A stretch of DNA of 64,000 bases from an uncultured Coriobacteriia bacterium (GCA_902475535.1 CABRZR010000006.1:22720-86719); one strand, 5' to 3'; counted from the stretch's first letter, positions 28,575 to 61,475 are shown. Made by a program: numbers and translations. Notes: generated by a model from the letters alone, not told the origin.

Positions 28575-28603
28575 TTGAACCTGACTTTAGGTCAAGCTAT
28601 CAT
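28575..28603 (+). promoter_or_regulatory. Sigma-70-like promoter with embedded imperfect dyad upstream of the MerR gene
   Basis: -35 element TTGAAC (28575-28580), a 17-nt spacer, and -10 element TATCAT (28598-28603). The spacer contains TTGAACCT...AGGTCAA, an imperfect inverted repeat that may be the MerR operator. Confidence 0.4.
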
Positions 28604-28628
28604 CACGCAAGGCGAAAGGAGAGCCTTC

Positions 28629-29099: not shown

Positions 29100-29791
29100 T
29101 CGGAACCATCGCGAACACTGCGGCCATTGTCCTGGGAAGCTCGATTGGGGCCGTAGCCAAGCGCGGCCTCGGCGAGAAGTACCAGGACGTGCTTTTCCTC
29201 GCCATGGGTCTTGCTGCCGTGGGCATTGGCGTCAATTCCATCGTCAAGGGCATGGGGCAGAGCGTCTATCCGGTTCTCTTCATCGCAAGCCTCGCCATTG
29301 GCGGCGTCATCGGCACGGCGCTTGACATCAACGGCCGCTTCGACCGCTTCGTCGACAAGCGTTCCAAGTCGGAGTCAAACCTCTCCCAAGGGCTCTCCAC
29401 GGCAATCATGATCTTCTGCTTCGGGGCGCTCTCCATCATCGGCCCCATCAACAGCGCCCTCTACGGTGACGAGACCTTCCTGCTCACGAACGCCACCCTA
29501 GACCTCGTGACCTCGATGGTGCTCGCCTCGTCCTTCGGCATCGGCATCGCACTCGCGGCCATCGTGCTCTTCTGCTGGCAAGGCGCGATATTCCTACTCG
29601 CCGCCCAACTCCAGCCCTTCCTCACGGCAGATCTCATGGCAGAGATCACCATCGTGGGCGGCTTTCTCATCCTGGCATCGGGCCTTGGCATACTCAAGGT
29701 CAAGGAAATACCCGTGATGAACCTGCTGCCAGCATTGCTCGTCCCGCCCCTATGGTTCCTCGCCATCCAGTTGCTGGCGCCCTTCCTGTAG
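29096..29791 (+). CDS. DUF554-family membrane protein (YdfK-like)
   Basis: 231-aa ORF whose start overlaps the merR-like stop by 4 nt (ATGA). The N-terminus MIGTIANTAAIVLGSSIGAVAKRGL is typical of DUF554. Confidence 0.7.
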   Translation: MIGTIANTAAIVLGSSIGAVAKRGLGEKYQDVLFLAMGLAAVGIGVNSIVKGMGQSVYPVLFIASLAIGGVIGTALDINGRFDRFVDKRSKSESNLSQGLSTAIMIFCFGALSIIGPINSALYGDETFLLTNATLDLVTSMVLASSFGIGIALAAIVLFCWQGAIFLLAAQLQPFLTADLMAEITIVGGFLILASGLGILKVKEIPVMNLLPALLVPPLWFLAIQLLAPFL

Positions 29792-29809: not shown

Positions 29810-30499
29810 TCATTTCACGACGGTAAAGTCAACGAGAAACGGATTGACGCTGTTCATGAATTCCTTGCGATGGGCCACGGTTGCCTGACCTTCGGGAATA
29901 GTTTTGAAAGCATTGGCAACTTCGGATGCCTCGCTGAAAAACAGCTCGAGTATCCCATCAAACGGGAGCCTGTCATGAGTAACATGACGACCATTTATCA
30001 TACGGTCGATAATGAGATGCTGGTTATACCCGTAGAAAATGTCAGTAGGCATCTTCGCCATGCATCCCGAATGAACGACAAACCATTCGCGAGTGAAGTC
30101 CTCAAATGACACATCCGGCACCGTGCGGCCCAGCAACGTCATCTTCTTCTGGCATCCATCCTCAACGCGCAGGGGAATGGACACGTTTTCAAGGCAGACG
30201 TAGGTCTCTTCGTACATCACCGCGTTTACGCGCTCACACAAAACCGCTGCATATGCATTGGATCTTCTAGCCTCCTCGTATGCGTCGAGATCGACATAGC
30301 GCTCGATGGTAAACGCATCGGCAAGAATCGCTTCAGAAGAGGCGTCACCGCGTTCCTTGGCAGTGACCCGATCGAACTCGAAGGATTCGAGCTCGGGGAT
30401 TTGAAGACACAGGGGTGCATAGACATCGTGCAGAAATGCGTCAAATTCGCTGTCTGAGATAGTCGGATCTTTGCGTAAGAGGTTAATGCAGGAAATCAT
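29810..30499 (-). CDS. Tandem EthD-domain protein (paralog 1 of 3)
   Basis: The ORF was trimmed to the ATG at 30497-30499, giving 229 aa starting MISCINLLRKDPTISDSEFDAFLHDVY. It shares the MIS.(I/M).LL(K/R) start, the Y(N/A)Q(N/H)L(V/I)IDR motif and the LP(V/F)(E/D)G..E(F/L)(W/F)F motif with the proteins at 32862-33563 and 41948-42643. Confidence 0.6.
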   Translation of the reverse strand: MISCINLLRKDPTISDSEFDAFLHDVYAPLCLQIPELESFEFDRVTAKERGDASSEAILADAFTIERYVDLDAYEEARRSNAYAAVLCERVNAVMYEETYVCLENVSIPLRVEDGCQKKMTLLGRTVPDVSFEDFTREWFVVHSGCMAKMPTDIFYGYNQHLIIDRMINGRHVTHDRLPFDGILELFFSEASEVANAFKTIPEGQATVAHRKEFMNSVNPFLVDFTVVK

Positions 30500-30626
30500 A
30501 GCACCTGCCCTTTCTACTCCAAAAACGGTTTTGGGATTAGCGGAAGGCGCGCAGATATGGCGCGCCCTCCACAGGAAAAGGAATGTGGTTCGCCAGCGTG
30601 GCACGAGGGCGACCCACGACAAACAC

Positions 30627-31118
30627 CTACATCATGAAGACCTTATAGGCATTGGCCGTATCCTCGTAGCGCTTCTTTATCTCGGCTTTACCACGTAGGT
30701 ACGTCAGTGACATCTCGGTAAAGTACCAGCGGCCATCGATTTTCACGTAGGCGTTGTCATAGTGGGCACGTCCGACAAACTCGCCGCCGTTCTCCGCATC
30801 GTAGAGATCGTCCTCAAGTGACCAGTGTGATGTTGCCGTATCTGGCCCCGTGATGTCGATCCAATGATGATGCCCCTGATGACTCGAGGTCACGTTGTCG
30901 CCGAACTTACCCTTCATGGTCTCGAGCATGCCATCGCGTCCTTCGTAACGGCCACCTGTCGTATTGTTGATGAAGACGAAGTCCTCGACAAGGCATGCAG
31001 CAAGTCCATCCCAGTCCTTGGCGTCGAGCGTGTCCCAATACGTCGCTTGAAGTCGCTCGATCGCACGCATGTCCTCGAGAGCCTGGATGCGTTTTTCAAG
31101 ATCCTCCATGGTGCTCAT
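30627..31118 (-). CDS. SnoaL_4 / NTF2-fold protein (BaiE-like dehydratase/isomerase fold)
   Basis: 163-aa ORF beginning with an N-terminal helix (LEKRIQALEDMRAIERLQATYWDTLDAKDWDGL). It has Tyr27-x4-Asp32, a His cluster at 80-85 (SSHQGHHHW), and WSLEDDL...YDNAYVKIDGRWYF, characteristic of the SnoaL_4 family. Confidence 0.7.
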   Translation of the reverse strand: MSTMEDLEKRIQALEDMRAIERLQATYWDTLDAKDWDGLAACLVEDFVFINNTTGGRYEGRDGMLETMKGKFGDNVTSSHQGHHHWIDITGPDTATSHWSLEDDLYDAENGGEFVGRAHYDNAYVKIDGRWYFTEMSLTYLRGKAEIKKRYEDTANAYKVFMM

Positions 31119-31130
31119 GGCAATCGCTCC

Positions 31131-31880
31131 TTACAAGAGGCTGAATCCGCCCTCTTCGTAGATGGTCTCGCCAGTGATGAACGAGGCATCATCCGAGGCG
31201 AGGAAGAGGGCGACGCTTACCATCTCCTCGATCTCGCCATAGCGACCAAACGGCATCTTTGCCAGGAAGGCGGCGTTGCGCTCCGGGTCGAACCTCGTGC
31301 CTTCCGTGATGCGAGTCTTCGAGGTGCCCGGGGCAACGGCGTTGACGTGAATGTCGTATTTGGCGAGCTCAAGCGCCATAACCTGCGTGAGCATGCTCAC
31401 GGCTGCCTTGGAAGGGCCGTAGGGCGTGATGCCGCCGATGGTCTTGCGTGCGCTATTGGAGCTCGTGTTGACGATATATCCCTTGATGCCCTTATCGACC
31501 ATCGTACGCGCAACGGCCTGGCCCACGTAAAACACGCCGTTCAGATTCGTGTCCATGACGTCGAGCCAGCCTTCCTGACTGCACTCGAGGAAAGGCTGAC
31601 GATGGGTGATGCCCGCATTGTTCATGAGGACGTCGATATGACCAAACTCCTCGATGACCTTGGCGACGCTCTCCTGCACCTGCCCATAGTCGCGAACATC
31701 ACAGTGCATGCAATACACGCGCTCGTTATCGGCGTAGACCTCTTCCATGGTATCGTCTTCGATATCGAAGACGATGACCTGTGCGCCTTCCCTCACGAGC
31801 TGCTCGGTCATGCCACGACCCAGACCATTGGCACCGCCGGTCACCAGCGCGATTTTGTCGATGAACCTTTGCTTTTCCAT
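31131..31880 (-). CDS. Short-chain dehydrogenase/reductase (classical SDR, 249 aa)
   Basis: Motifs ALVTGGANGLG, NNAG and catalytic YGPSKAA. It lies 12 nt upstream of the SnoaL_4 gene. Confidence 0.88.
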   Translation of the reverse strand: MEKQRFIDKIALVTGGANGLGRGMTEQLVREGAQVIVFDIEDDTMEEVYADNERVYCMHCDVRDYGQVQESVAKVIEEFGHIDVLMNNAGITHRQPFLECSQEGWLDVMDTNLNGVFYVGQAVARTMVDKGIKGYIVNTSSNSARKTIGGITPYGPSKAAVSMLTQVMALELAKYDIHVNAVAPGTSKTRITEGTRFDPERNAAFLAKMPFGRYGEIEEMVSVALFLASDDASFITGETIYEEGGFSLL

Positions 31881-31898
31881 GGATGCTTCCTTTCGGTC

Positions 31899-32795
31899 CT
31901 ATTGCTTGTCAGCCGTCGCCAGGTGTAGATAGGTTGTGGCACCGCCATCGGCCGCGATGGATTCGCCGTTGATGAAGCTCGCGTCATCGGAAGCGAGAAA
32001 CAGCGCGACCGAAGCGATCTCTTCGGGAAGCGCGTAGCGCTTCATCGACGATGCCTCGCTGAGACCCTTGCGGTTCTGTCCCCTGGGCAGCGTCATGTCC
32101 GTAAGGATGAGCCCGGGGTTCACCGCATTGACACGCACCCCGTAGGCCCCCAGGTCGGTAGCTGCGGCACGGGTTGCGCCCAAAGCCGCGGCCTTGGCCA
32201 TCGCGTAGCCGATAAGATTGCCAGGACCAAAGTGATTGCCCTGGTAGGAGCAGGTATTGACGATAGCACCACCACCTGAGTCGATGATGGCCTGGGCACA
32301 GTAGTGCATGCCGTTGTAGACACCCCAGCAATCGACGTCCATCATGCGCTCGAGATCCTGGCGGGATGCCGTGAGAACCGACCCGTTCACGCAAATGCCG
32401 GCATTGTTCACGAGCACGTCGAGATGTCCTTGCTCGTCGAGTATCTTCTCGACGAGCTTCTGCCAGGCGACCTCGTCGACGACGTCCATGGGAAAGACCA
32501 CGGCCTCTCCCCCGTCATCCCTGATCTGCGCTTCCACACGCCTGAGCCCGTCTTCCTTGACGTCGGTCATGTAAACCGTCGCGCCTTGCTGAGCGAACAT
32601 CTTGGCTTCCATCTCGCCTTGGCCGCCAGCGGCACCAGTCACGATGACCACCTGGCCCTCGAACTTCCCGGAGCCCTTCTCGACCCGAGGCCAGCGCTTC
32701 GCCTGCTCCTCGCCATAGACCTTCTCCTCGAACTCCGCCTGACCAGGCCCCGAGAGGATGACGTCATCGAAAAATTCCGCGCGCTTTGACTTCAT
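31899..32795 (-). CDS. SDR with an approximately 50-aa N-terminal extension
   Basis: The ORF was trimmed to the ATG at 32793-32795, preceded by GGAGAG. Motifs VIVTGAAGGQG, NNAG and catalytic YAMAKAA. Confidence 0.85.
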   Translation of the reverse strand: MKSKRAEFFDDVILSGPGQAEFEEKVYGEEQAKRWPRVEKGSGKFEGQVVIVTGAAGGQGEMEAKMFAQQGATVYMTDVKEDGLRRVEAQIRDDGGEAVVFPMDVVDEVAWQKLVEKILDEQGHLDVLVNNAGICVNGSVLTASRQDLERMMDVDCWGVYNGMHYCAQAIIDSGGGAIVNTCSYQGNHFGPGNLIGYAMAKAAALGATRAAATDLGAYGVRVNAVNPGLILTDMTLPRGQNRKGLSEASSMKRYALPEEIASVALFLASDDASFINGESIAADGGATTYLHLATADKQ

Positions 32796-32810
32796 GGTTC
32801 TCTCCATTCA

Positions 32811-32852
32811 GGAAAAAGCGGCCGCATCGAATTCCATATCCGATGCGGCCGC
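32811..32852 (-). terminator. Strong intrinsic terminator between the EthD gene and the SDR genes
   Basis: Perfect 12-bp stem GCGGCCGCATCG / CGATGCGGCCGC with an 11-nt loop. On the minus strand it is followed by TTTTT. It lies 10 nt after the EthD stop and its T-tract ends 15 nt before the SDR start. Confidence 0.75.
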
Positions 32853-32861
32853 ATGAATCGA

Positions 32862-33563
32862 CTAGTCTTCCAGTTCGACGGGAACCGCTTCGACAAAGTA
32901 GGTCGTCACCGTTCCGATGAACTCGGCGGCATGGACGCTTGCGCGCTTCTTGAAGCCCACGCTGCCATAGCATTCGTCGAAGGCTTCCATGTCCTCGAAC
33001 CAGAACTCGACCATACCCTCGACCGGGAGATCCTTATAGTGGACCTCTTCGTCACCGATGCAGCGGTCGATCACCAGGTTCTGGTTGTAGCCGCAGCATC
33101 CTCCCATCAGTTCCACCAGTATGGAGTGGACGTACCACCACTCGAAGTGGAAGGTCATGGCATCGACGCCCTCGGCGCGGTCGCAGAACGAGACGCGCTT
33201 GATGATGTCGCGACCCTTGAGGTACTCGGGGACGAGCTTGTCGAATTTCCTGACCGTGACAAGCGCGGAGATTGGCTTTTCCACGATGGGTTCGAGCACG
33301 TCGCGAAGGGCATCGCCGGCCTGGGTCATGCACTTTGCCATGTCCCCGTAGCTGTCGAAGATCATCTCTATGAAACCGTCGATGTCAATCGCCCCGCGAC
33401 ACAGATGCGAACGCTGCTGCTTATCGGTCACGAAGTTGATCTCGCACTTGCGCAGCAGGGGCATCTTGGCGATTACGTCACGCGCCTCCCCCATCATCAC
33501 CGCGCGGAATTCCTCTTCGGAAATTCCCTCCTTGCACTTGAGTAGATTAATTCTGGAAATCAT
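32862..33563 (-). CDS. Tandem EthD-domain protein (paralog 2 of 3)
   Basis: 233-aa ORF starting MISRINLLKCKEGISEEEFRAVMMGE. Its second half (IIKRVSFCDRAEGVDAMTFHFEWWYVHS...YNQNLVIDR...LPVEGMVEFWFEDMEAFDECY) repeats the EthD pattern. Confidence 0.65.
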   Translation of the reverse strand: MISRINLLKCKEGISEEEFRAVMMGEARDVIAKMPLLRKCEINFVTDKQQRSHLCRGAIDIDGFIEMIFDSYGDMAKCMTQAGDALRDVLEPIVEKPISALVTVRKFDKLVPEYLKGRDIIKRVSFCDRAEGVDAMTFHFEWWYVHSILVELMGGCCGYNQNLVIDRCIGDEEVHYKDLPVEGMVEFWFEDMEAFDECYGSVGFKKRASVHAAEFIGTVTTYFVEAVPVELED

Positions 33564-33588
33564 GACTACTCCCCTTCTTCAAGGTTGT

Positions 33589-34851
33589 TTAGTTCTCGGC
33601 ATTCTTGGCTTCCATCATGGCAGCATCGCGAGCCTTCATCTTGTTGTAGATCGGCAGACCGATTGCAAGCAGGATGATTGCGATGATGCAAAGGACGCCC
33701 AGGATGGGAAACGCCGTGCTATAGCTGCCCGTTGCGGCGAGCGTGTTGGCGGAGAGCATGGGGCCGATGACGGCCGCAAGCGCATAGCCCCAGTACATGA
33801 AGCCATAGTTCTGGCCCATGTTGGCCGGGCCAAAGGCATCGCCAGTAAGCGAAGGCATGATGGCCATGATGCCGCCAAAGCACATGCCCAGCACGATCGA
33901 CTCGATGATGAAGGGCATCGTGGAATCGGTGTTTCCATAGAGGAACAGGTGAATCACCGCGGTGATGCCGATAACGATGAACAGCGTCTGGAATCGTCCG
34001 ATCTTGTCGGAGAGAGTGCCAAAGCCAAAGCGTCCGGCGGCATTGGCAACGGCGAAGATGCTGACCATCATGGCGCCCGTCGCGGCATCCATGCCCGCTT
34101 GCGTCTGGCCGACGAGGGATGCGGTACCGAGCATGAACACGCCCGTGCATGCGGTGAGCGCGAATACGATGACCATGATCCAGAAGAGCGGGGTCTTCAT
34201 CATCTCGGGCGTAGTGTAGCTCCTGCGGTTCTTGGCCTCCTCGTCAACGGGAGGATTCCAACCCTCGGGCTGGTAGTCTGCAGGCGGCAGAACGTAGCAA
34301 AGCCACGAGAAGATGAGGAACATGACGATGCTGAACGCGCCCACGACCATGAACGAGGGCATGGGACCGATTGCCTGCACGATCATGTTTCCGACCGGGG
34401 CAGTCCACAGCGGCCACAAGGCCATCGTGGCGAGCGAGATACCGTTGACGAGGCCCTTCTTGTCCGGGAACCAGCGCGTGGTCAAGGCCAGCGACGTGTT
34501 GTAGATAATGCCATCGGCAAAGCCGACGATGATGCCGAAGGTGATGAGCAGCATGATGGGATTCGTTGAAAAGCCCGTGAGAATCCAGCCGATGCCAAAG
34601 ACGATACCGCTGACGAGCATGATCTTGTGAGCCGCGAACTTGCGCTGGAACCAGCCGCCAACGGGGCCACCCGCAAAGCCAATGACAACGATGGCGAGCG
34701 TGTAGGCGAGTGCCACGATCTGCGGCGACCAGCCAAACTCGGCCATCATGGGTTTCTGAAAAATGCTGTAGCAATTCAATGATGCGGTGATCGCTCCGCA
34801 CATTGCCGCGCCGACGAGAACTACCCAGCGCGATTTAGGCTTCATTGCCAT
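33589..34851 (-). CDS. MFS transporter, oxalate/formate-antiporter (OFA)-like subfamily
   Basis: The ORF was trimmed to the ATG at 34849-34851, 4 nt after GGAGGA, giving 420 aa. It has 12 predicted TMs and a TTRWFPDKKGL motif shared with the partial MFS at the window end. Confidence 0.8.
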   Translation of the reverse strand: MAMKPKSRWVVLVGAAMCGAITASLNCYSIFQKPMMAEFGWSPQIVALAYTLAIVVIGFAGGPVGGWFQRKFAAHKIMLVSGIVFGIGWILTGFSTNPIMLLITFGIIVGFADGIIYNTSLALTTRWFPDKKGLVNGISLATMALWPLWTAPVGNMIVQAIGPMPSFMVVGAFSIVMFLIFSWLCYVLPPADYQPEGWNPPVDEEAKNRRSYTTPEMMKTPLFWIMVIVFALTACTGVFMLGTASLVGQTQAGMDAATGAMMVSIFAVANAAGRFGFGTLSDKIGRFQTLFIVIGITAVIHLFLYGNTDSTMPFIIESIVLGMCFGGIMAIMPSLTGDAFGPANMGQNYGFMYWGYALAAVIGPMLSANTLAATGSYSTAFPILGVLCIIAIILLAIGLPIYNKMKARDAAMMEAKNAEN

Positions 34852-35152
34852 GTGTTCCTCCAATATAGCTTCCGAAAGATTACGTGCATGCGAAAGGCAT
34901 CGCCTTTCCCCCAAACCGAGACCCCTCCTCCTTTCGTTTCGACGTGCAAACCGTTCTATACGCACATGATTCCGATGCTGCGATACGTGCTGATGTGCCG
35001 GAGTCAATTGATGCCGAAACTGGACTAGATCCTCACCGCTGCGTTGCGGTTCATGCCAAGAAGCCAGAGAAAACAATGAGGAAGATGACCCCACTTGCCT
35101 TGAAGGTATCCCTCCTCACGAGATGTATGCTATGAGGGTTTCAAGATGACCT

Positions 35153-35174
35153 CAATAACGCACTTAAAAGTAAG
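35153..35174 (-). promoter_or_regulatory. Cluster motif copy S1 (CAATAACGCACTTAAAAGTAAG on the plus strand)
   Basis: It matches S3 at 22 of 23 positions including the following A. It sits in the 360-bp non-coding region upstream of the OFA-MFS gene. In gene orientation it reads CTTACTTTTAAGTGCGTTATTG. Confidence 0.55.
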
Positions 35175-35211
35175 AAGCTGCCGTATACGTAAGTACGACA
35201 GCCAAATTTGG

Positions 35212-36609
35212 CTACAGAAAGCCAAGTCCTCTCATGAGCATGACGCTGGCGATGAGAAGGGCTGCGGTGATGACCGCATAGGGCCCGTTCCACTTGAGAC
35301 TCGCCTCCATGGGAGATGCCTGCACCATGTCCGCAACGGCGATGACATTTGCCGAGGCGGGGCAGATCGTATTGCCCAACGCCCAGCTCATCGACAGGAC
35401 AAGCGCAAGGTACGCAGCCGATATTCCGCACAGCGCAGGGTCAATGGCACCTCCTATGACGGCCGTTGCCACGATGGGATGAATCCCCGCCGCACAGGTA
35501 AGCAAGACGATGATGACGATGGCCGTCGTCAGAAGCAGCACGCTTTGACCGGTGGTGAGCACGAGGGCTTGCGCGATGACATCCCCGATGCCCGAATATC
35601 CGATGCTCTGGGCGAGCATGCCCGCTCCCGCGAAGAGGACGATCTGGTTCTTGGCACCGGGAAGCTTCTTCTCGAAATACGCGTTCTTGAGCTCCTTGCG
35701 ATATAGGGAAAACCGCCTGATGAAGAGCATCCAGACAAAGGGCCACACCAGCGATGCCATGGCGACGACGATGATGGCCGAAAGGCCGAACAGTTGGGAA
35801 ACCAGGGCGATGAAGACTATGAGGAGCACGGAGAAGACGGCGAGCTCCGCCACCTTTGCCTTGTCGATGCTTCCGGGGGCATCCTTGGATGCACTCGCGC
35901 CATCGTCCATCGCGGAAGCCTTCCCACCCAGCTTGCGCGAGAGCACCGTCATCAGGATGCCGACGCCCTCTGCGACAAGAGCGCAAACGATTGCGCAGGG
36001 GGCAAAGCTCACCCACTCTGCGCTTGTCACCGAAACGACCAGAGCGATGGTCGCCGACGTGGGCGCCCATATCATGCACGTGACGAACCCGCGCGCAAGG
36101 GCCGTCCCCAGGAGCCTCTTGTTGGCTCCCAGACGGCTTTCACGCGACATCTCGAACGTAAGCGGTACGGCGGCGATGCTTATGAGCGCACCGGCTACAG
36201 CCGCCATGCCGCTTACGAGCGAATAGTATCGTCCCTCCGAGTTGGCATATCGCGCAAACAGGCTCCTCAGCGATTCGTTATAGCCCCCATGTTGGACGGG
36301 TATGCCAATAAGCGGAATCAGGATGAACATGACGATGAGGTCGGCGTTCTTGCGAAGCGCACGCACCCATTCCTCGACCGGTGCCTGGGCATACAGCAGC
36401 AACCCGACGCTTATGACAATGAGGACGATGCCGATGAGCCGTGACGATCCCGTCGAGACGAAAATGCTCATCACGAGCACCACGACCATGAGGACAGCGT
36501 TCACGTCATCGAGCAGCGGAGCATGCAGAAAGACGTTGATGATGTAGCACACGGCGAAGCACAGGGTGATGACGCTACGCGTGGTACGTATGGCAACGGG
36601 CTCTTTCAT
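35212..36609 (-). CDS. Polytopic permease of unknown specificity (two-repeat ion-transporter-superfamily-like architecture)
   Basis: 465-aa ORF behind the RBS AAGGGAGAGGG. It has about 12 hydrophobic helices split by a central hydrophilic loop (LGGKASAMDDGASASKDAPGSIDKAK). I recognise no named motif. Confidence 0.6.
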   Translation of the reverse strand: MKEPVAIRTTRSVITLCFAVCYIINVFLHAPLLDDVNAVLMVVVLVMSIFVSTGSSRLIGIVLIVISVGLLLYAQAPVEEWVRALRKNADLIVMFILIPLIGIPVQHGGYNESLRSLFARYANSEGRYYSLVSGMAAVAGALISIAAVPLTFEMSRESRLGANKRLLGTALARGFVTCMIWAPTSATIALVVSVTSAEWVSFAPCAIVCALVAEGVGILMTVLSRKLGGKASAMDDGASASKDAPGSIDKAKVAELAVFSVLLIVFIALVSQLFGLSAIIVVAMASLVWPFVWMLFIRRFSLYRKELKNAYFEKKLPGAKNQIVLFAGAGMLAQSIGYSGIGDVIAQALVLTTGQSVLLLTTAIVIIVLLTCAAGIHPIVATAVIGGAIDPALCGISAAYLALVLSMSWALGNTICPASANVIAVADMVQASPMEASLKWNGPYAVITAALLIASVMLMRGLGFL

Positions 36610-36714
36610 CGGACCCTCTCCCTTTGAAAAGGCAAACGAGAACTGTAAGGGCGCAGGAGGACGTTTCCCCCTGCGCCCATATGACGGCGCGAGACGAACT
36701 AATCTGTGGCAGGG

Positions 36715-38034
36715 CTAGCTATTAACCGGTGTACCGTCCTTGCGGTAGTAGCGTTTCATGAGGAAGATCGCGACGAGAATCGAAACGACGTCAGCGGCGA
36801 TGATGAAGAAGGCAAGGGAGATCGCATTTCCCGTCCCGGCGATAATCGCGGTCGCAATGGCCGGGGCCATGCCGCCAAAAACCGCGGCCGCAAGGTTGTA
36901 GGCGAGACCGACGCCGCTGTTGCGCGTCTCGGTGGGATACACCTCGGATGCCGCCGTGGCCACCGCCACCGCGTTGAGTGACTGGAAGGGCAGCAGACAT
37001 GCCAGGGCGCAGATCATGATCAGCACGGCATGCCCGTTGATGACGGCCCAGAAGACCGGGTAGGCAAGTACGATGAATCCCAGGCACGCGATGATGACAG
37101 ACTTCCTGCGCCCGAACTTGTCCGCGAACATGCCCGCAAACGGGCAGAGGACCAAATATACAGCAACGACGGCGGTATTGACGATAAAGCCCTCGAGCAT
37201 GGTCCCGCCGACGAACTCCTTGATATAGGTAGGCAGGTAGGTCACCAACAGGTAGTAGGAGACGCTGGTGCCGGCAAGCAGGCCGATGTTGGTGATCATG
37301 GCGACCCAATGCTTCTTGAAGAGGACCTTGACGGGCGTGTGATCTTCCTCGGTGGCCTTCTTCTGCTCCTTCATCTTCTCGAACTCGGGAGGCTCGGGCA
37401 CGCTTTTGCGCAGGTAGACGCCATAGATGGCGACGACGATGCCGATGAGGAACGGAATGCGCCAACCCCAGGCGTAAAGATCGGGCTGGGATAGCACCGA
37501 CGTGCAAATCAGACCGGTGATCGATCCGATGAGCATGCCGACGCCGACACTGAACGGCTGCCAGCTGACGAGGAAGGAGGTGTTCTTGCCGTTGTTGAAC
37601 TCAGAGATGAACGTGAGGGCGGAACCGAACTCGCCGCCAGTCGCCAGGCCCTGCAGCAAGCGCAGGACCGTGAGCAGGATGGGTGCCATGATGCCAATCT
37701 GCTCATAGGTCGGCAGACATCCCATGAGCATGGTGCATATGCCTATCGCCATGATGGTGACGGTGAGCGACTTCACGCGCCCGTGCTTATCCGCGTAGGC
37801 TCCCATGATGAGGCCGCCAATGGGGCGCACGACAAAGCCGACGCCAAACACCATGAAACTCATGAGAATGCCGACAACGGGATCTTCGGACGTGAAGAAC
37901 TCCGCGGAAATGACAACCGCAAAGTAACCGTATAGGCCATAGTCGTACCATTCCAGGACGTTACCCAGGCATCCAGAGAGTATCGACTTGAAAAGCGATG
38001 CGTTCTTCTGGGCGGGTTGAACTTCTTTTGCCAT
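36715..38034 (-). CDS. MFS transporter, metabolite:H+ symporter (MHS)-like
   Basis: The ORF was trimmed to the ATG at 38032-38034, after AAAGGGGAG, giving 439 aa. LEWYDYGLYGYFAVVIS resembles the EW(Y/F)DF..YG motif of MHS carriers (ProP/KgtP/ShiA type). Confidence 0.75.
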   Translation of the reverse strand: MAKEVQPAQKNASLFKSILSGCLGNVLEWYDYGLYGYFAVVISAEFFTSEDPVVGILMSFMVFGVGFVVRPIGGLIMGAYADKHGRVKSLTVTIMAIGICTMLMGCLPTYEQIGIMAPILLTVLRLLQGLATGGEFGSALTFISEFNNGKNTSFLVSWQPFSVGVGMLIGSITGLICTSVLSQPDLYAWGWRIPFLIGIVVAIYGVYLRKSVPEPPEFEKMKEQKKATEEDHTPVKVLFKKHWVAMITNIGLLAGTSVSYYLLVTYLPTYIKEFVGGTMLEGFIVNTAVVAVYLVLCPFAGMFADKFGRRKSVIIACLGFIVLAYPVFWAVINGHAVLIMICALACLLPFQSLNAVAVATAASEVYPTETRNSGVGLAYNLAAAVFGGMAPAIATAIIAGTGNAISLAFFIIAADVVSILVAIFLMKRYYRKDGTPVNS

Positions 38035-38227
38035 GCGTGCTCCCCTTTCGTAAAGACCTCCATGCGCCCCAAAACAAACTGCTCCATGTGCGGGAGTCCG
38101 ATATCGCGAGGCGCCTTCCCATCTGCATCTACGCCCGTGCAAAGCATTGCGATCGACACGATCGGGTTACGGGAAGATGCATGTATCCCATCTAAGGGAA
38201 ATGGTATGGCCGGCAGGAAACGGCGCT

Positions 38228-38249
38228 CAATAACGCACAAATAAGTTAG
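38228..38249 (-). promoter_or_regulatory. Cluster motif copy S2 (CAATAACGCACAAATAAGTTAG) with adjacent perfect palindrome CTTACCAAAAGGTAAG (38252-38267)
   Basis: It shares CAATAACGCAC with S1. In gene orientation it reads CTAACTTATTTGTGCGTTATTG, with a TAAC-N10-GTTA dyad. It lies between the ene-reductase stop (38333) and the MHS start (38034). Confidence 0.5.
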
Positions 38250-38332
38250 TCCTTACCAAAAGGTAAGATATGGAGGGGAAAGGCTCCCCGCCTCGAGCAA
38301 GACGAGAAGTCCTCGAGCAGTGGATCAAGCGA

Positions 38333-40393
38333 CTAAATCCGGCATGCAGCCTCTCTGCCATCGATGATGGCGTGCTTGACGAACGCGTTATCGCCTCCCA
38401 GCGTGGAGCCAATCTCCACGACCTCGACACCCGCGTTCCTGAGCTCATCGCAAAACGCGGCATCGCGCTTCTCGGGAAGCATGACGAGAACGCTGTCGCA
38501 GCCAAAGGTGCGCTCCCTGCCATCCACCTCCGCAATGACGAGACCCTTGCGGATCTCCTTGCATGTGGCATTGCGCACGACCTCGACGCCGTTTTCCTCG
38601 AACCAGGGCTCCAAGCGCACCTTGTAGGGCACGGGAACCAATCCGCCGATGTCATCGTCTTCCGAGAGCAGCGTGACGTCCTTTCCGCAGTGGGCCATGA
38701 ACGTTGCGCACTGCGCGCCCTCGGCACCGGCACCCAAAACGACTATCTTCTTGCCCACGGGCATGAAATGCCTGCTCGCCTTGTGTATGAACTCGGGACT
38801 GAAGAGCTTGAGCGGGAGTTTCGCGAGCTTCGAAAGCCCGGGGATGGTGTACACGTTGCTGCCGTCGATACCGGGAATGTCGGGAATCAGATATGGCGAG
38901 CTGTTGGCGAGCATGACCACATCGGGTTTTTCTCGCCTGACGAGCTCTGCCGAGACCTCCTCGTTGAGATGCACCCGCACGTCGTACTTGCCCACCATGG
39001 TGGTGAGGTAATCGTAGATGGGCATGATGTCCTCGACCTTGTTGCCCTTGATCATCGATGCCAGCTTGAGCCTGCCACCCAGCTCGCCGGACCTCTCGTA
39101 CAAGTCCACGTCATGACCGCGAGCCGCCGCGTCAATGGCCGCCTGCATGCCAGCAGGACCTCCGCCGATGACCATTACCTTCTTCCTTGTCTCAGCGGGC
39201 TTGAGCTCGAGCTCCTTCTCGCGCCCGAGCGCGGGATTCACGCGGCAGATACGCGGTGAGACGAGCGGGTCCTGACACGACCCGCAGCGATTGCACCGGC
39301 GAATCTCGTCGATGCGTTCCTCCTTCACCTTGTTGGGAAACTCGGGGTCTGCCCATAGATAGCGGCCAAAGCCGATGATATCGGCATAGCCTTCCTCGAG
39401 CGCGCGCTCGCCCTTGACCTCGTCCATACGACCGACGCACACGACAGGCACCTTGACGGCATCGTGGATGTACTTTGCCGCCGGAAGCAGCAGTCCCATG
39501 TCCTCGTAGTCCTTCATGTAAGGACGCATGTGGGGCTCGGGGTCGGGATACGGAAAGTAATCCGGAATGAAGCGGAACGGAAGCTCGCCATAACCATATC
39601 CGGTCACGCTGATGTATTGGTATCCAATCATCTCGAGCGCTATGGCGGTGTCGCGCGCCATGTCGGGCGTGATACCGTTATTTCCCGTCAAGGGCGAGAA
39701 CTCGATGCCGTTGATGCGCGTGCCGATGAGAAAGTCGGGACCGCATGCCTGCCGAATCATCTGGTAGAGCTCTGCCATGACACGCGTGCGATTGGCCACG
39801 TTCTCGAAGGCATACTCGTCATCGCGCTTGTTCCATATGGGGCTGAGGAAGCTGTTGAGCAGGTATCCATGTGCGGCATGCACCTCGACACCGTCAAATC
39901 CGGCCTTCTTCATGCGCACGGCGCCCTCGACGATGAGCTTCTCCTTCTCGTGAATCTCCTCGACCGAGAGCCCGCGTGTCGCGCGCCCCTCGGGTTCGGG
40001 AATGGGAAGGTCCTCGGTCTCAATTGTCGACGAGCTGAAGGGTCGCCCTTCGCCGAGCACGGCCGCGGAAGGCCCACCATGGTGGAGCTGGCCTATGATA
40101 TAGCTGTCATGGCGATGCACGGCCTCCGCGAGCTCGGTCAAGCCCGGGATGAACTTGTCATCCCAGACGTTGCAGTAGCGCCCGGGCATGTCATCCCACA
40201 TAACGCCGCCGATGACCACGGCCGCCGCGCCGCCTGCGGCGATGCTCTCGTACAAACCGATTGCCGCGCTTCCATCGGCGGTGCCGTCATCGTTCCAGCG
40301 AAACGTTGACTGGCCCGTCTTCATGATGCGGTTCTTGAAGATAATCTTCGGCGTGATCTCCAGCGGAGACATAAGTTTTTCGAAGCCACCCAT
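38333..40393 (-). CDS. FadH/OYE-type Fe-S flavoenzyme (NADH:flavin oxidoreductase / enoate-reductase family), paralog A
   Basis: 686-aa ORF. The OYE TIM-barrel signature is HAAHGYLLNSFLSPIWNKRDDEY. The Cys cluster is CNRCGSCQDPLVSPRIC. Two dinucleotide folds are present (VMVIGGGPAGMQAA and VVLGAGAEGAQCA). Confidence 0.88.
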   Translation of the reverse strand: MGGFEKLMSPLEITPKIIFKNRIMKTGQSTFRWNDDGTADGSAAIGLYESIAAGGAAAVVIGGVMWDDMPGRYCNVWDDKFIPGLTELAEAVHRHDSYIIGQLHHGGPSAAVLGEGRPFSSSTIETEDLPIPEPEGRATRGLSVEEIHEKEKLIVEGAVRMKKAGFDGVEVHAAHGYLLNSFLSPIWNKRDDEYAFENVANRTRVMAELYQMIRQACGPDFLIGTRINGIEFSPLTGNNGITPDMARDTAIALEMIGYQYISVTGYGYGELPFRFIPDYFPYPDPEPHMRPYMKDYEDMGLLLPAAKYIHDAVKVPVVCVGRMDEVKGERALEEGYADIIGFGRYLWADPEFPNKVKEERIDEIRRCNRCGSCQDPLVSPRICRVNPALGREKELELKPAETRKKVMVIGGGPAGMQAAIDAAARGHDVDLYERSGELGGRLKLASMIKGNKVEDIMPIYDYLTTMVGKYDVRVHLNEEVSAELVRREKPDVVMLANSSPYLIPDIPGIDGSNVYTIPGLSKLAKLPLKLFSPEFIHKASRHFMPVGKKIVVLGAGAEGAQCATFMAHCGKDVTLLSEDDDIGGLVPVPYKVRLEPWFEENGVEVVRNATCKEIRKGLVIAEVDGRERTFGCDSVLVMLPEKRDAAFCDELRNAGVEVVEIGSTLGGDNAFVKHAIIDGREAACRI

Positions 40394-40413
40394 GGATTGA
40401 TTCCTCCAATGTC

Positions 40414-41160
40414 CTAGAACAGCGTGAAGCCGCCATCCTCAACCAAGGTCTCGCCGGTAACGTAGGAAGCGTCGTCACTTGCCAGGAACAGCGCGACGTT
40501 TGCGGCCTCCTCGGGAGCGCCATAGCGGCCCATGGGAATGTTGGCGAGAAACTGCGCGTTGCGCTCGGGGTCATTCCTCGTGCCCTCGGTAATGCGCGTC
40601 ATGCTCGTGCCCGGCCCGAAGGCATTGACGCGGATTCCATGTTCGGCAAGCTCCAAGGCGAGCCATTTGGTCAGCTGGGACACACCCGCCTTGCTGGCGG
40701 CGTACGCGCCGGTGTTCTTGGAGACCGTGCGCGACGTGCATGAGCTCGTGTTGACGATGGCACCCTTGATTCCGCGTTCGATCATCGACTTCGCCACGGC
40801 CTGGTCCATCCAAAAGCATCCATTGAGGTTGATGTCGATGACGCGCCGCCATTCCTCCTCGGTCGTGCTCTGCACGCTCCCGCGTTTGATGATGCCCGCG
40901 TTGCTGAAAAGGATGTCGATATGCCCGTATGCCTCGAGCACCTCGTCTACCACCTTGTTGCACATGGCGTAATCGGCAACGTCGAGGGGATAGATCGTGA
41001 TGTTCTCGTTGCCCTCGAATTCGCGTACCAACGTGTCACCCTCGATATCGAGCGCCGCAACCTTGGCACCCTCTTCGAGAAGGCGGCAGACAATGCAATG
41101 GCCAATGCCGTTTGCCGCGCCCGTCACCACGGCCACTTTATCCTCGAACCTCTTGCCCAT
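40414..41160 (-). CDS. Short-chain dehydrogenase/reductase (248 aa)
   Basis: Motifs AVVTGAANGIG, SNAG and catalytic YAASKAG. It lies 20 nt upstream of ene-reductase A and 24 nt downstream of the HxlR gene. Confidence 0.88.
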   Translation of the reverse strand: MGKRFEDKVAVVTGAANGIGHCIVCRLLEEGAKVAALDIEGDTLVREFEGNENITIYPLDVADYAMCNKVVDEVLEAYGHIDILFSNAGIIKRGSVQSTTEEEWRRVIDINLNGCFWMDQAVAKSMIERGIKGAIVNTSSCTSRTVSKNTGAYAASKAGVSQLTKWLALELAEHGIRVNAFGPGTSMTRITEGTRNDPERNAQFLANIPMGRYGAPEEAANVALFLASDDASYVTGETLVEDGGFTLF

Positions 41161-41184
41161 CGTTTCTCCTTACCTTTAGCTGGT

Positions 41185-41676
41185 CTATTCTTCTGCCTCG
41201 TCCTCGTCACACGCGGTGTCGAAGTACCAGACAATGTGCTCGCGCGTCTTATCGATCTTGCCGTCCTCACCCCCGGTGCCGTATTCGAGCTTCCCATCGT
41301 TGAGGGAGCCCTTCGTTTGCTTGAGTGCCTCAACCGAGAAGTTGCGGTGCACGACGCCCCAATCGCGAATGAGATACAGGAGGTTTGCCATGCTGATGCC
41401 GTCTGGCGTGAGGAGATAGTCGACCCACAGGGGCTTGTCTTCGACCACGACACGTTCGAGCATGCCCGTCTCCTCGAGCTCGTTGAGATGCTGCGAGAAC
41501 ATCTTGTCCGATATCTTGTACGGGATGATTTTCTTGAGCTCGCCGTAGCGCGCACGTTGATGAGGTTGCAAGCTCAGGTACCAGATGATGAACGGCTTCC
41601 ACTTGCCACCCAAGATCTTTGTGAGGACCTGCGTAAGCATGCATGAGGTTAACCTGTCGATACTGTTAGGATCCAT
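41185..41676 (-). CDS. HxlR-family winged-helix transcriptional regulator with an approximately 60-aa C-terminal extension
   Basis: The ORF was trimmed to the ATG at 41674-41676, 8 nt after GGGAGG. The HxlR signature is LGGKWKPFIIWYL...RYGELKKIIPYKISDKMFSQHLNELEETGMLERV. It is the first gene of the HxlR-SDR-ene-reductase run. Confidence 0.85.
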   Translation of the reverse strand: MDPNSIDRLTSCMLTQVLTKILGGKWKPFIIWYLSLQPHQRARYGELKKIIPYKISDKMFSQHLNELEETGMLERVVVEDKPLWVDYLLTPDGISMANLLYLIRDWGVVHRNFSVEALKQTKGSLNDGKLEYGTGGEDGKIDKTREHIVWYFDTACDEDEAEE

Positions 41677-41947
41677 CACAATCGCCTCCCGAGCCACGCC
41701 ATTACCTCGACCGGCCTCTGGTCAAAGACACTCACGGAATCCCTGCGCAATAGAGATGCAAGGAGATTATTATTGCCCCCCCCTGAAAGCAATCACAGAG
41801 CCAGGGGGTTTGTGGTAGATACAGGACCGAAGATATGTCCTCATCGACGCCTGCCCTTCCCCGTCTATAACGACATGGGGCCGGACTCGTCGAGCCCGGC
41901 CCAAACCACCACACTTCAAGCTAGGTTCGCTATCTGGCAATGGCAAG

Positions 41948-42643
41948 CTAGAGTATGTCGTGTACCTCGGTAAGATACGTGTTAATCGCACCGATGAACT
42001 CGCTGCCGTGCTGCGACGTCCTCTTGAACTCGGGAGAGTCGTAGCATTCGTTGAAGGCATCCATGTTCTCGAACCAGAACTCGACGACGCCCTCGACAGG
42101 AAGCTCGTCATAATGGACGGAAACGCCGTTGACGATGCGATCGATCACGAGATTCTGCGCATAGCCAACGTAACCCGGCATGGTGTGCACCATTTCGGTG
42201 TGAACGTCCCACCACTGGTACATCCACTCCTCGGCGCTCACGCCCTCGGCTCGACCCATGAACGACACGCGCTTGATAAGCGGCTTGTCGCCATTCAACA
42301 AGTATTTGGGAGTGTGTTTCACGAACTTCTTCACGCAAACGAGAATGGGATTATGCGGGTCGGCGAACTTCGGAACGTCATCGGCACCCTTGCCGTCTAA
42401 CGACATGACGCCCTCGACCATGTCGCCATAGCTATCAAACTGCAGCTCGGAATAGCCATCGATGATGATGGGACCCTGGCCCAAGGGATGACGATGCTCG
42501 TTGTCGCATACCGCGTGCTGAGAGTAATGGCGCAGGTTCTTCATCTCCGCGGCGATGGGACCATGGACGTTGAGCCAGTAATCCTTGAATTCTTCCTGCG
42601 TCGTGCCCTCTTTGCGCTTCAAGAGACCCATTCTGCTAATCAT
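41948..42643 (-). CDS. Tandem EthD-domain protein (paralog 3 of 3)
   Basis: 231-aa ORF. The N-terminus MISRMGLLKRKEGTTQEEFKDYWLNVHGPIAAEMKNLRHYSQHAV closely follows the EthD-family consensus as I recall it. A second EthD-like half follows. It is divergent from ene-reductase B. Confidence 0.7.
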   Translation of the reverse strand: MISRMGLLKRKEGTTQEEFKDYWLNVHGPIAAEMKNLRHYSQHAVCDNEHRHPLGQGPIIIDGYSELQFDSYGDMVEGVMSLDGKGADDVPKFADPHNPILVCVKKFVKHTPKYLLNGDKPLIKRVSFMGRAEGVSAEEWMYQWWDVHTEMVHTMPGYVGYAQNLVIDRIVNGVSVHYDELPVEGVVEFWFENMDAFNECYDSPEFKRTSQHGSEFIGAINTYLTEVHDIL

Positions 42644-42719
42644 GTGTGACCACTCTCCTTAGACACCTTCATGTAGTCCTGCCTTCTTCCAAGATTCTAG
42701 AAACGGGATTACGCCGAAA

Positions 42720-42741
42720 CAATTACGCACTTAAAAGTAAG
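42720..42741 (-). promoter_or_regulatory. Cluster motif copy S3 (CAATTACGCACTTAAAAGTAAG)
   Basis: It lies about 80 nt upstream of the EthD paralog-3 start. In gene orientation it reads CTTACTTTTAAGTGCGTAATTG, with a TTAC-N10-GTAA dyad. Confidence 0.55.
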
Positions 42742-42791
42742 AGGAGACATGGGAAGTCCCCCGTCATCTCATCGAAGGCTGCGTAGAAGCG

Positions 42792-42813
42792 CTAACAATA
42801 AAGTGCGTACTTG
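42792..42813 (+). promoter_or_regulatory. Cluster motif copy S4 (CTAACAATAAAGTGCGTACTTG), oriented toward ene-reductase B
   Basis: It is inverted relative to S3, 50 bp away, and about 75 nt upstream of ATG 42888. Its orientation relative to the downstream gene is the same as for S1-S3. Confidence 0.5.
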
Positions 42814-42887
42814 GAATGCCCCTATCACGCTCCCTATGATGACAGCCGCACGAACGCATAGTCCCGTGTTGGCCGTCGAAAGAGGAT

Positions 42888-44954
42888 ATGATGCAAGAAT
42901 TCGAACATCTCATGTCACCCATCGAAATCGCCCCGAGCTTCAAGATGAAGAACAGGATCATGAAGGCGCCTCAGTCAACATGGAGGTGGAATCTCGATGG
43001 TACCGCCGATGGCAGCGCGGGCATTGACCTATACGAGAGCATGGCCAAGGGCGGTGTCGGTGCCATCGACATAGCCGGCATCAACTGGGAGCCGCCGGTA
43101 GGTGGCGGCATCTACCTCTGCGCCTACGATGACAGGTTCATCTCGGGCCTCACCGAGCTTGCCGAGCGTCTGCACAAGTACGATTGCCGCGTGATCGGCC
43201 AGCTCCATCATGGCGGTCCGCTCGCTCCCGTGCAAGGCGGCGGCAGGCCCATCTGCGCCTCGACGCTCGAAATAGAGGACCTTCCCACCCCTCCTCCCGA
43301 GGGACTCGCGACCCATGGTCTCACGCACGACGAGCTCATCGAGAAACGCCAGCTCATCGTCGATGCAGCCGTACGCTTATGGAAGGCCGGTTTTGATGGC
43401 GTGGAAATCCACGCGGCCCACGGTTACTTCCTCAACAGCTTCCTCAGCCCCATTTGGAACCACCGCGATGACGAGTACGGCCCCCAGACGGCCGAGAGCC
43501 GCACGCGCATCATGAAGGAGATTCATGACATGGTACGCGACGCATGCGGGCCGGACTTCGTCATAGGCACGCGCATCAACGGCCAGGAATGGTCTCCGCT
43601 CGTCTCGGGCGGCATCACGCCCGAGCTCGCCGTCAAGAATGCCAAGGCCCTCGAATCCTATGGTTACCAGTACATAAGCGTATCGGGATATGGATACGGC
43701 AAGCTCCCGTTCCGCTACTGTCCCGACTACTTCCCCTACCCCGATCCGGAATCCTTCATGGAACCCTATATGGAGGATTTCAACGATCTTGGCATCCTCA
43801 TGCCGGGAATCCGAGCCGTCAAGGAAGCCGTTAACGTTCCGGTCATCGGCGTCGGCCGCATGGACGAGGTCAAGGGCGAGCGCGTGCTGCGAGAGGGATA
43901 TGCCGATATCATCGCCTACGGGCGCTACCTCTGGGCCGATCCCGAGTTCGCCAACAAGGTCAAGGAGGGTCGTACCGACGAGATTCGCCGGTGCAATCGC
44001 TGCGCGAGCTGCGAGGATCCCGTCACGTCCCCTCGCATCTGCCGCGTGAACCCCGCGCTCGGACGCGAACGCGAACTCGAGCTCAAACCCGTCGAGACAA
44101 GCAAGAAGGTCATGGTGATCGGCGGTGGCACGGCGGGAATGCAATGTGCGCTCGATGCCGCCGAACGTGGATTCGACGTGACGATATACGAGAAGAAGGG
44201 CGAACTCGGTGGCCGCATCAAGCTCGCCTCCATGATAAAGGGCGACAAGGACGAAGACGTCATGCCGCTTTTCGATTACCTCACCACCATGATCGAGAAG
44301 TCCAACGTCACCGTCAAGCTCAAGACCGAAGTGACATTGGACCTCGTGAAACGCGAGAAACCGGACATCGTCGCGCTCGCAGACAGCTCTCCCTACTTCA
44401 TTCCCGACATCGAGGGCATCGACCGAAAGAACGTCTTCACGATACCGGCAATGACCAAGCTTGCCTCCATCCCCATGAAGATGTTCGGTCCCAGAAAGCT
44501 CGCGACCATGAGCGAAAAGGTCTTTCCCGTCGGCAAGAAGATCGTGATTCTGGGTGCCGGCGCCGAGGGAGCCCAATGCGCGACGTTTTTGGCTCATCGC
44601 GGGAAGGAAGTCGTCCTCCTTGCCGAGACCGAAGACGTTGGCGGCCTCGTGCCCCAAAAGTACAAGGTACGCCTCGTTCCGTGGTTCGAGGAGCATGGCG
44701 TGCGCATCGTCTATAACTCGCAACTGCTGCGCATCGAGAAGAAGTCGGTGACTGTCGAAGTCGATGGGAAAGCCGAGGAAATTGCCTGCGATAGCGTGAT
44801 GGTCATGCTTCCGGAACAACATGACCCCAGCTTCTACGAACAACTCGTGCAGATCGTGCCCGAGGTCTACGAAATCGGCTCGACACTCGGAGGCGACAAC
44901 GCCTTCCTGAAACATGCGATGCTCGACGGACGCTTGGCGGCCGTGAAGATGTAA
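42888..44954 (+). CDS. FadH/OYE-type Fe-S flavoenzyme, paralog B
   Basis: 688-aa ORF. By eye, 41 of the first 66 aligned residues are identical to paralog A. It has the same Cys cluster spacing (CNRCASCEDPVTSPRIC) and the same dinucleotide folds (VMVIGGGTAGMQCA, VILGAGAEGAQCA). Confidence 0.88.
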   Translation: MMQEFEHLMSPIEIAPSFKMKNRIMKAPQSTWRWNLDGTADGSAGIDLYESMAKGGVGAIDIAGINWEPPVGGGIYLCAYDDRFISGLTELAERLHKYDCRVIGQLHHGGPLAPVQGGGRPICASTLEIEDLPTPPPEGLATHGLTHDELIEKRQLIVDAAVRLWKAGFDGVEIHAAHGYFLNSFLSPIWNHRDDEYGPQTAESRTRIMKEIHDMVRDACGPDFVIGTRINGQEWSPLVSGGITPELAVKNAKALESYGYQYISVSGYGYGKLPFRYCPDYFPYPDPESFMEPYMEDFNDLGILMPGIRAVKEAVNVPVIGVGRMDEVKGERVLREGYADIIAYGRYLWADPEFANKVKEGRTDEIRRCNRCASCEDPVTSPRICRVNPALGRERELELKPVETSKKVMVIGGGTAGMQCALDAAERGFDVTIYEKKGELGGRIKLASMIKGDKDEDVMPLFDYLTTMIEKSNVTVKLKTEVTLDLVKREKPDIVALADSSPYFIPDIEGIDRKNVFTIPAMTKLASIPMKMFGPRKLATMSEKVFPVGKKIVILGAGAEGAQCATFLAHRGKEVVLLAETEDVGGLVPQKYKVRLVPWFEEHGVRIVYNSQLLRIEKKSVTVEVDGKAEEIACDSVMVMLPEQHDPSFYEQLVQIVPEVYEIGSTLGGDNAFLKHAMLDGRLAAVKM

Positions 44955-45041: not shown

Positions 45042-45087
45042 GGGCGGGTGAGGGTCCCTCCTCCTCACTCGCCCCCTCCTTTTTTTA
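45042..45087 (+). terminator. Probable intrinsic terminator of ene-reductase B
   Basis: The stem GGGCGGGTGAGG / CCTCACTCGCCC pairs at 11 of 12 positions. It is followed by CCTCC and then a T7 run (45080-45086). Confidence 0.5.
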
Positions 45088-61226: not shown

Positions 61227-61333
61227 CCTCCCCCATATTCGGCCTCCCGGAATGCGAGCATCCGAAAAGCCACCATTGCATCTTCACTACGCATGGTTAT
61301 ACAAAAGCCTTGAACCATAGTCGTGACCATGCG

Positions 61334-61373: not shown

Positions 61374-61475
61374 AAGAGCTATAGGCGTCTGGCATTGTTC
61401 GTAGTACATCCAAGGTGAGGAGAGCGCCTATCATATGGGTGTGCTAGTTCGAAAAGCAAGCGAGCGGGGGGACGC

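Follow-up and report, generated by a model that had tools for sequence, protein, structure and literature searches.

A 22-bp motif at four promoters of a reductive island in an uncultured Coriobacteriia bacterium is probably the promoter-proximal operator of an HxlR-family regulator

The HxlR family, thiol switches and palindromic operators are all well known. YodB of Bacillus subtilis and QsrR of Staphylococcus aureus, for example, are quinone-sensing repressors in which quinones alkylate an N-terminal Cys; they target electrophile reductases and bind palindromic operators that have a half-site distance of 10-12 bp and overlap core promoter elements (TACT-N7-AGTA in the case of YodB). HxlR reportedly binds two adjacent sites upstream of the promoter (2005 paper by Yurimoto). 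It is a formaldehyde-responsive activator of B. subtilis hxlAB that acts upstream of the -35 element and whose hxlAB-gfp reporter system is functional in E. coli (PMC7835342), and HypR (YybR) activates transcription in vitro at hypO from a site upstream of -35 and has a Cys14 thiol switch; the same box is also found downstream of HypR's own promoter, i.e. in an autorepression geometry (PMC3351151). Here we report on a 64,000-nucleotide stretch of DNA from an uncultured Coriobacteriia bacterium (GCA_902475535.1, CABRZR010000006.1:22720-86719; referred to as the window), which carries a reductive island of approximately 15 kb (≈29810-44954, as outlined with Pfam) with a gene for an HxlR-family regulator and with four copies of a 22-base word, CTWACWWWWWWGTGCGTWMTTG. 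Our sequence comparisons make it very probable that each 22-mer is the promoter-proximal site of this regulator, fused to the -35 element of a promoter for the housekeeping sigma factor. Four operons may be switched on together through these sites.

Reading of the sequence and a pattern search agree on the four copies in the 64 kb, with the coordinates and strands that an earlier note on this DNA had claimed. Three are on the minus strand, S1 (35153-35174; CTTAC-N6-GTGCG followed by TTATTG), S2 (38228-38249; CTAAC-N6-GTGCG followed by TTATTG) and S3 (42720-42741; the proximal box followed by TAATTG), and S4 (42792-42813; CTAAC-N6-GTGCG followed by TACTTG) is on the plus strand. When up to three mismatches were allowed the same four matches, and no others, were found, and there were none in 100 dinucleotide-preserving shuffles. 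A position weight matrix (PWM) based on 25 distinct Coriobacteriia sites gave scores of 38.1 (S1), 31.8 (S2), 37.5 (S3) and 33.5 bits (S4), compared with 11.2 bits for the next best position in the window and 6.6-18.5 bits for shuffled windows; the motif is therefore confined to the island within the 64 kb. S1 and S3 differ at a single base and GTGCGT is present in all four copies, so that the near-identity and the shared (A/G)TGCGT pointed out in the earlier note both hold, as do the restriction to the island and the orientation towards the downstream gene. Each copy faces the first gene of one of four units: S1 points at MFS2 (ATG at 34851), S2 at MFS1 (ATG at 38034), S3 at EthD (ATG at 42643) and S4 at ene-reductase B (ATG at 42888), with S3 and S4 placed back to back in a divergent region, each with its own predicted promoter. 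In an alignment of the four regions the likeness ends at the edge of the 22-nt motif and the flanks are unrelated.

The last three bases of every copy are TTG, and a TAnnnT hexamer comes after a further 20-21 nt. The predicted promoter at S1 has TTGAGG as -35, a spacer of 17 nt and TAGCAT as -10 (35127-35132, minus strand, 20 nt after the motif), with a predicted start at ≈35120; at S2 these are TTGAGC, 18 nt and TACCAT (38201-38206, minus strand, 21 nt after the motif; start ≈38194), at S3 TTGTTT, 17 nt and TAGAAT (42694-42699, minus strand, 20 nt after the motif; start ≈42687), and at S4 TTGGAA, 18 nt and TATGAT (42835-42840, plus strand; start ≈42847). A TAnnnT at offset 20 or 21 is seen in 39 of 42 distinct Coriobacteriia site-plus-flank instances, compared with 0.9% at random positions. 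With a numbering that assumes the -10 box to occupy -12 to -7, the 22-mer spans approximately -54 to -33 and its terminal TTG opens the -35 element of the predicted promoters. At orthologous S4-type sites this TTG is replaced by TGG or TAG, and the -10 register is kept. Because the distance to the -10 is fixed at 20-21 nt, the motif lies upstream of the predicted starts and outside the leader; the predicted starts are thus located on the other side of the motif from where the earlier note would have needed them for the motif to be transcribed as part of a leader RNA. S1 is ≈300 nt away from the true MFS2 start, and not a few tens of nt. The start is the ATG at 34851, which gives a 420-aa product as in the relatives, and the leader behind the S1 promoter is for this reason ≈270 nt long. 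A 501-aa open reading frame (ORF) from 35094, which would bring S1 close to the start codon, was considered as the true MFS2 and rejected since the upstream extension is stop-interrupted or variable in length in the relatives.

Homologs of the HxlR protein of the window are confined to Eggerthellaceae and other Coriobacteriia, and twelve loci around such homologs (58-90% identity) were compared. All twelve have a similar island, including hxlR, with the gene order shuffled. In the islands that were fetched the motif is present ahead of every transcription unit and in the orientation of the genes, with diverged spacers and flanks, and a relocated gene has its own site, e.g. the gene for the 699-aa ene-reductase in loci L007 and L011. 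The position of hxlR varies: in L003 it follows 26 nt behind the preceding gene, in the same unit and without a site of its own, and in Rubneribacter (L009 and L010) it heads the island and is preceded by its own site. We also note that three close relatives (L001, 12624-12645; L026, 1278-1299; L122, 1247-1268) have a fifth, slightly degenerate site, CTTACTTTTAAGTGGGTAGTTG, which precedes an SDR gene and follows an extra gene for a 626-aa ene-reductase that is absent from the window.

To look beyond this lineage, one genome per species was scanned with the pattern CTWACTWWWWWGTGCGTWMTTG, which returned exact-pattern matches only, in at least 119 stretches; position 6 was fixed to T, which biases the scan away from S4-type sites. 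Besides ten Coriobacteriia islands, the matches listed come from Clostridia, Enterococcus, Bacillus, Burkholderiales, gammaproteobacteria, alphaproteobacteria, Streptomyces, Actinoplanes, cyanobacteria, Armatimonadota, Saccharibacteria and others. No similar sequence was found in the E. coli genomes searched, and three plasmid matches are without annotation. An HxlR-family ORF, identified with a profile made from the Coriobacteriia HxlR proteins, is present in 99 of the 119 listed stretches, and for 89 of the 120 listed motif instances it is located within 300 bp, upstream and divergent. PF01638 was confirmed with Pfam in all ten ORFs that were sampled (E-values between 1e-22 and 4e-33). The remaining ≈800 kb of the listed stretches hold only about six more HxlR matches, and chance adjacency is therefore negligible. 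The listed sites from other phyla also have a -10 signal at motif positions 43-48, with A44 in 84 and T48 in 88 of 102 cases. The gene downstream in the listed loci codes for a small SnoaL-like protein in 48 of 105 cases and for an FMN reductase or flavodoxin-like protein in 17, and SDR, NmrA-like, nitroreductase, aldo-keto reductase and DsbA-like proteins are found among the others. Such enzymes are the usual partners of electrophile- or quinone-responsive regulators. Where the loci of other phyla are divergent, hxlR has its start codon 6-25 nt past the motif, and a -10-like TAnAnT is present on the opposite strand at motif positions 38-33; together these place the operator inside the hxlR leader, in an autorepression geometry as described for HypR. 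The reading as an HxlR operator, which the earlier note had put forward as a candidate, is thus supported by the conservation at orthologous promoters, the fixed -10 register and the adjacency to PF01638 genes across phyla, and we file the motif under HxlR operators since co-occurrence, symmetry and position all point in this direction.

We read the 22-mer as a single dimer site, a 16-bp pseudo-palindrome CTWAC-N6-GTGCG followed by TWMTTG, which would bridge into the -35 element. The centres of the half-sites are 11 bp apart, i.e. about one helical turn as expected for a winged-helix dimer, the dyad is at ≈-46.5 and the span is -54 to -39. Three of the five half-site positions are symmetric, with the left half being consensus and the right half deviant. 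The dyad T(T/A)AC-N10-GT(T/A)A of the earlier note did not survive the comparison; its half-sites are 14 bp apart and its right end is not conserved outside the clade, with C found at position 19 in 94 of 102 listed sites. Its perfect palindrome at S2 stands: CTTACCAAAAGGTAAG at 38252-38267 is a perfect CTTAC-N6-GTAAG located 2 bp upstream of S2, with its centre at ≈-65.5, and we read it as a second, distal HxlR site. Orthologous S2-type sites, as well as three of four Rubneribacter sites, retain this element in the form CTTACyTTTnGGTrAG. Among 97 distinct listed sites from other phyla, 44 have CTTAC-N6-GTAAG (with at most 2 mismatches in 10 positions) 2-4 bp before the 22-mer, where ≈0.1% would be expected by chance. 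The flanks of the other-phyla sites, which the scan pattern leaves unconstrained, have GGTAAGTA between -9 and -2 and CTTnCTT between -19 and -13, and these together make up the perfect palindrome CTTAC-N6-GTAAG.

The asymmetry of the proximal site was addressed with a metagenome scan using the pattern CTTACNWWWWNGTAAGN{2,4}CTWAC, in which the right half of the proximal site is left free. Among the 120 matches listed, this half is GTGCG in 26 (0.12 expected) and GTAAG in only 2, and in 23 of the 26 GTGCG cases the next six bases are TWMTTG. Since GTGCG is enriched in a part that the pattern leaves free, the asymmetry is real and not an artefact of the pattern. As a separate observation, 29 of the 97 listed other-phyla sites, e.g. 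those in L016, L024, L030 and L032, have a third GTAAG half-site in the spacer of the target promoter (motif positions 19-34), so that as many as three 16-bp sites follow each other in tandem at intervals of ≈18-19 bp. Many such proteobacterial loci have only 6-16 nt between the hxlR start codon and the motif, too little for a separate ribosome-binding site.

The regulator gene (41185-41676, minus strand) codes for a 163-aa protein with PF01638. That it is the sole regulator, as stated in the earlier note, is correct for the inside of the island, and it is also the one HxlR-family ORF in the window; a MerR-family gene (28575-29099) is found just beyond the left edge of the island. All of the 57 clade members compared have Cys12, which aligns with Cys11, the sensing residue of B. 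subtilis HxlR. The closest solved relatives are YtcD, HxlR, YdzF and HypR. The protein resembles B. subtilis HxlR (PDB 7BZD and 7BZG) in having PF01638 (E = 9e-13 between the two proteins) and in that the N-terminal Cys of helix 1 is aligned with Cys12. It differs from HxlR by having C12-M13-L14, i.e. the residue two positions past the Cys is not the Lys of the formaldehyde bridge, by a C-terminal extension of ≈50 residues and by being associated with four promoters rather than one. The extension (residues ≈110-163) is found in the Eggerthellaceae HxlR clade, whereas typical family members of 105-130 aa are without it; F113, S114, W150, F152 and D153 are invariant, and in the AF2 model, which has a confident winged-helix core, it forms a small beta-sheet with a pLDDT of ≈60. 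A role of this module in ligand binding or oligomerisation is possible.

With respect to the operators of the described relatives, the DNA in the HxlR crystals (CAGTATCCTCGAGGATACTG) has GTATC-type half-sites in the opposite orientation compared to the window motif, and the HypR box GTATCAA-AA-TTGATAC (GTATCAAAATTGATAC), which has its footprint at -53 to -95 and a single target gene, differs from it as well. No match was thus seen between the motif and either of these two characterised operators of the family; this is no argument against membership because the operators of the family differ among themselves. The YodB operator shares the TAC...GTA orientation with the motif, but the sequences otherwise differ, and YodB and QsrR are farther from the window protein (E = 1.7e-7 and 6e-9, respectively). 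One of the listed matches of the genome scan belongs to B. paralicheniformis: directly after the gene for its YdzF ortholog (E = 2.4e-60 relative to the PDB chain) there is an exact 22-mer, CTTACTAAAAAGTGCGTACTTG, followed by a -10 box and a YdeN-like gene. YdzF (PDB 9WVG and 9X3C) has 112 aa and, unlike the HxlR protein of the window, no C-terminal extension, one site and one target; our literature search on YdzF gave no open paper. The layout also resembles promoters of the LysR type, with a recognition site at ≈-65 and an activation site by the -35 element, in that a perfect palindrome at ≈-65 is combined with a degenerate, asymmetric site next to -35 and in that the other-phyla loci have a divergent regulator gene with a leader or promoter overlapping the sites. 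This is an analogy of site layout only, the protein fold being unrelated and the sites 16 bp long.

Given binding by HxlR, our judgement leans, if only slightly, towards activation from a site that abuts the -35 element. The site is found immediately upstream of a sigma-70-type -35, always at a fixed position and in a strict orientation, which fits an activator-type site better than a simple repressor operator. Activation is favoured because the dyad is upstream of -35 and leaves the core promoter uncovered, because none of the four promoters, not even the back-to-back S3 and S4 with one site each, departs from the strict orientation and register, and because the -35 TTG is dispensable at orthologous S4-type sites. 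It is further favoured since the ≈-65 site has been conserved at S2, a place that offers it no divergent gene to control, and since HxlR and HypR, the nearest solved relatives, are activators that work from upstream sites. The alternative that HxlR is a repressor like YodB and QsrR, which covers the -35 TTG, blocks RNA polymerase and is released upon alkylation or oxidation of Cys12, is in our view unlikely, if still a serious possibility. It would explain why the motif takes in the first three bases of the -35 element, and the family does hold thiol-switch repressors, with QsrR and YodB among the PDB relatives; moreover, the additional GTAAG half-site in the spacer of other-phyla promoters is in a repressor-like position, and the operator within the hxlR leader of the divergent loci has an autorepression geometry. 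In the window the overlap with the -35 amounts to the last three bases of the 22-mer, and the third half-site is absent. At the four island promoters, however, the 16-bp dyad is upstream of -35 and the spacer and the -10 are untouched. Change of the TTG to TGG or TAG with the register kept is typical of factor-dependent promoters, and a conserved extra site at ≈-65 would not be needed for occlusion. That the nearest solved relatives are activators also speaks against repression.

Several points weigh against our reading. The genome-scan pattern was derived from the window's own sites and samples exact matches only, the promoter positions are predictions from the -10 spacing, and binding of HxlR to the 22-mers is itself predicted. 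Within the window hxlR has no preceding site of its own, as the PWM scan confirmed for what the earlier note had said of the region directly upstream of the gene. Further, the window HxlR is not especially close to the motif-associated regulators outside the clade, its recognition helix being ISDKMFSQHL as compared with the consensus I(S/T)QKMLAQQL, and it is about equally similar to B. subtilis HxlR, which has another binding sequence (AGTATCC..GGATACT), and to YdzF. The motif could be read by the product of the neighbouring MerR-family gene at the island edge, by a regulator encoded elsewhere or by an alternative sigma factor with GTGCGT..TTG as an extended -35; we regard this as improbable given the PF01638 adjacency in the listed instances and the fact that the islands always carry hxlR. 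MerR-family sites are located between -35 and -10 and not, as here, upstream of -35, and an alternative sigma factor is at odds with the -10 of the housekeeping TAnnnT type and with the island, in which no sigma factor gene was found using Pfam. An RNA leader or processing element would fit with S1 and S2 being intergenic and downstream of genes on the same strand, such that read-through transcripts would include both, and with the T-rich half of S1 being the tail of a terminator-like hairpin; it is nevertheless very improbable, since a constant 20-21 nt separate the motif from the -10 downstream of it, S3 and S4 are divergent, the copies in other phyla are in divergent promoter regions beside the gene of a DNA-binding regulator, and an Rfam search of the window gave no match. 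That the copies, four near-identical ones within 8 kb, are a short dispersed repeat, or what is left of a mobile element, without regulatory role has a probability close to nil: the likeness ends at 22 nt, the copies are found only ahead of operons and in one orientation, and they are conserved at orthologous positions despite diverged neighbouring sequence. The alternative-sigma promoter, the RNA element and the mobile repeat were thus each rejected on counterevidence specific to them.

In the activation mechanism that we propose, HxlR dimers would occupy the four sites and coordinate four operons that code for two ene-reductases, SDRs, EthD and SnoaL proteins and two MFS transporters, with hxlR itself included via the S3 unit. 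Cys12 would be the thiol switch and respond to a signal that is electrophilic or oxidising, and it is plausible that the trigger is an oxidant or a Michael acceptor; possible signals are the enone or quinone substrates of the island reductases. More speculatively, and we hold this to be rather doubtful, the whole might be a portable promoter cassette that occurs across phyla and consists of an optional CTTAC-N6-GTAAG, an asymmetric CTWAC-N6-GTGCG-TWCTTG, a 17-nt spacer and TAnnnT, in which the proximal asymmetry encodes the activation geometry of one HxlR subfamily; the Eggerthellaceae regulator, with its added C-terminal domain, would then have multiplied the cassette for a 15-kb island, and the switch would sense the island's enone or quinone substrates through covalent modification of Cys12.

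A literature search for the motif string returned unrelated primers only, and the literature searched on HxlR-family operators, YdzF and the island enzymes has nothing on the motif, although curated regulon databases might list it. What is less ordinary compared to the known features of the family is a predicted operator-promoter module of 22 bp that is near-exact, with its asymmetry conserved, across many phyla, and its apparent multiplication to four promoters of a 15-kb reductive island in a gut actinobacterial lineage. Eggerthellaceae have many gut reductase islands that act on dietary or host compounds, and their inducers and substrates are mostly obscure. A predicted operator-promoter module together with a named candidate regulator offers a handle for inducer screens, using reporter fusions or assays of regulator release from DNA, and with the PWM the regulon can be delimited in any genome of the family. 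The island would also be a case where a small stress regulator, usually with one target, has been recruited to coordinate four operons. Finally, the 22-bp conservation beside HxlR genes provides a ready prediction for uncharacterised regulators of the YdzF type.

The units behind the four sites are as follows. The S3 unit (38333-42643, minus strand) comprises EthD (41948-42643), HxlR (41185-41676), SDR (40414-41160) and ene-reductase A (38333-40393), which we infer to be cotranscribed, and hxlR of the window is thus most likely carried on the S3 transcript. On the same strand follow the S2 unit (35212-38034), with MFS1 (36715-38034) and a 465-aa membrane protein (35212-36609) for which there was no Pfam match, and the S1 unit (29810-34851), with MFS2 (33589-34851), an EthD-like gene, two SDR genes, SnoaL and a second EthD-like gene. 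Behind S4, ene-reductase B (42888-44954, plus strand) has an OYE-type FMN domain and an FAD/NAD domain, and a strong terminator-like hairpin is located 3' of it (45042-45074). Another terminator-like hairpin (35176-35203, minus strand) follows the gene for the 465-aa membrane protein; its T-rich tail is the left half of S1, and the stem end GGC(A/G)GCTT is found ahead of all S1-type sites in the relatives. The shared tail and the stem end taken together mean that terminator and operator overlap at S1.

The ≈270-nt MFS2 leader (34852-35120, minus strand) is kept in orthologous loci, where RNAalifold predicts a multi-hairpin structure with 10 pairs maintained by two-sided changes; a conserved GAAAGGAGGAGGG pairs with CCTTTC, and Rfam gave no match for this region. 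Possibly it serves the transporter operon as a structured regulatory leader. Directly to the left of the island the MerR-family gene is co-oriented with a DUF554 membrane-protein gene (28575-29791 for the pair), and no connection between this pair and the 22-mer was seen. Away from the island, a divergent intergenic region (61227-61475) holds three copies of GGTACTAA(A)T at 61334-61374, of which two are direct and one is inverted, the 10-nt arms showing 100% complementarity, and these are a candidate operator of an unrelated regulator.

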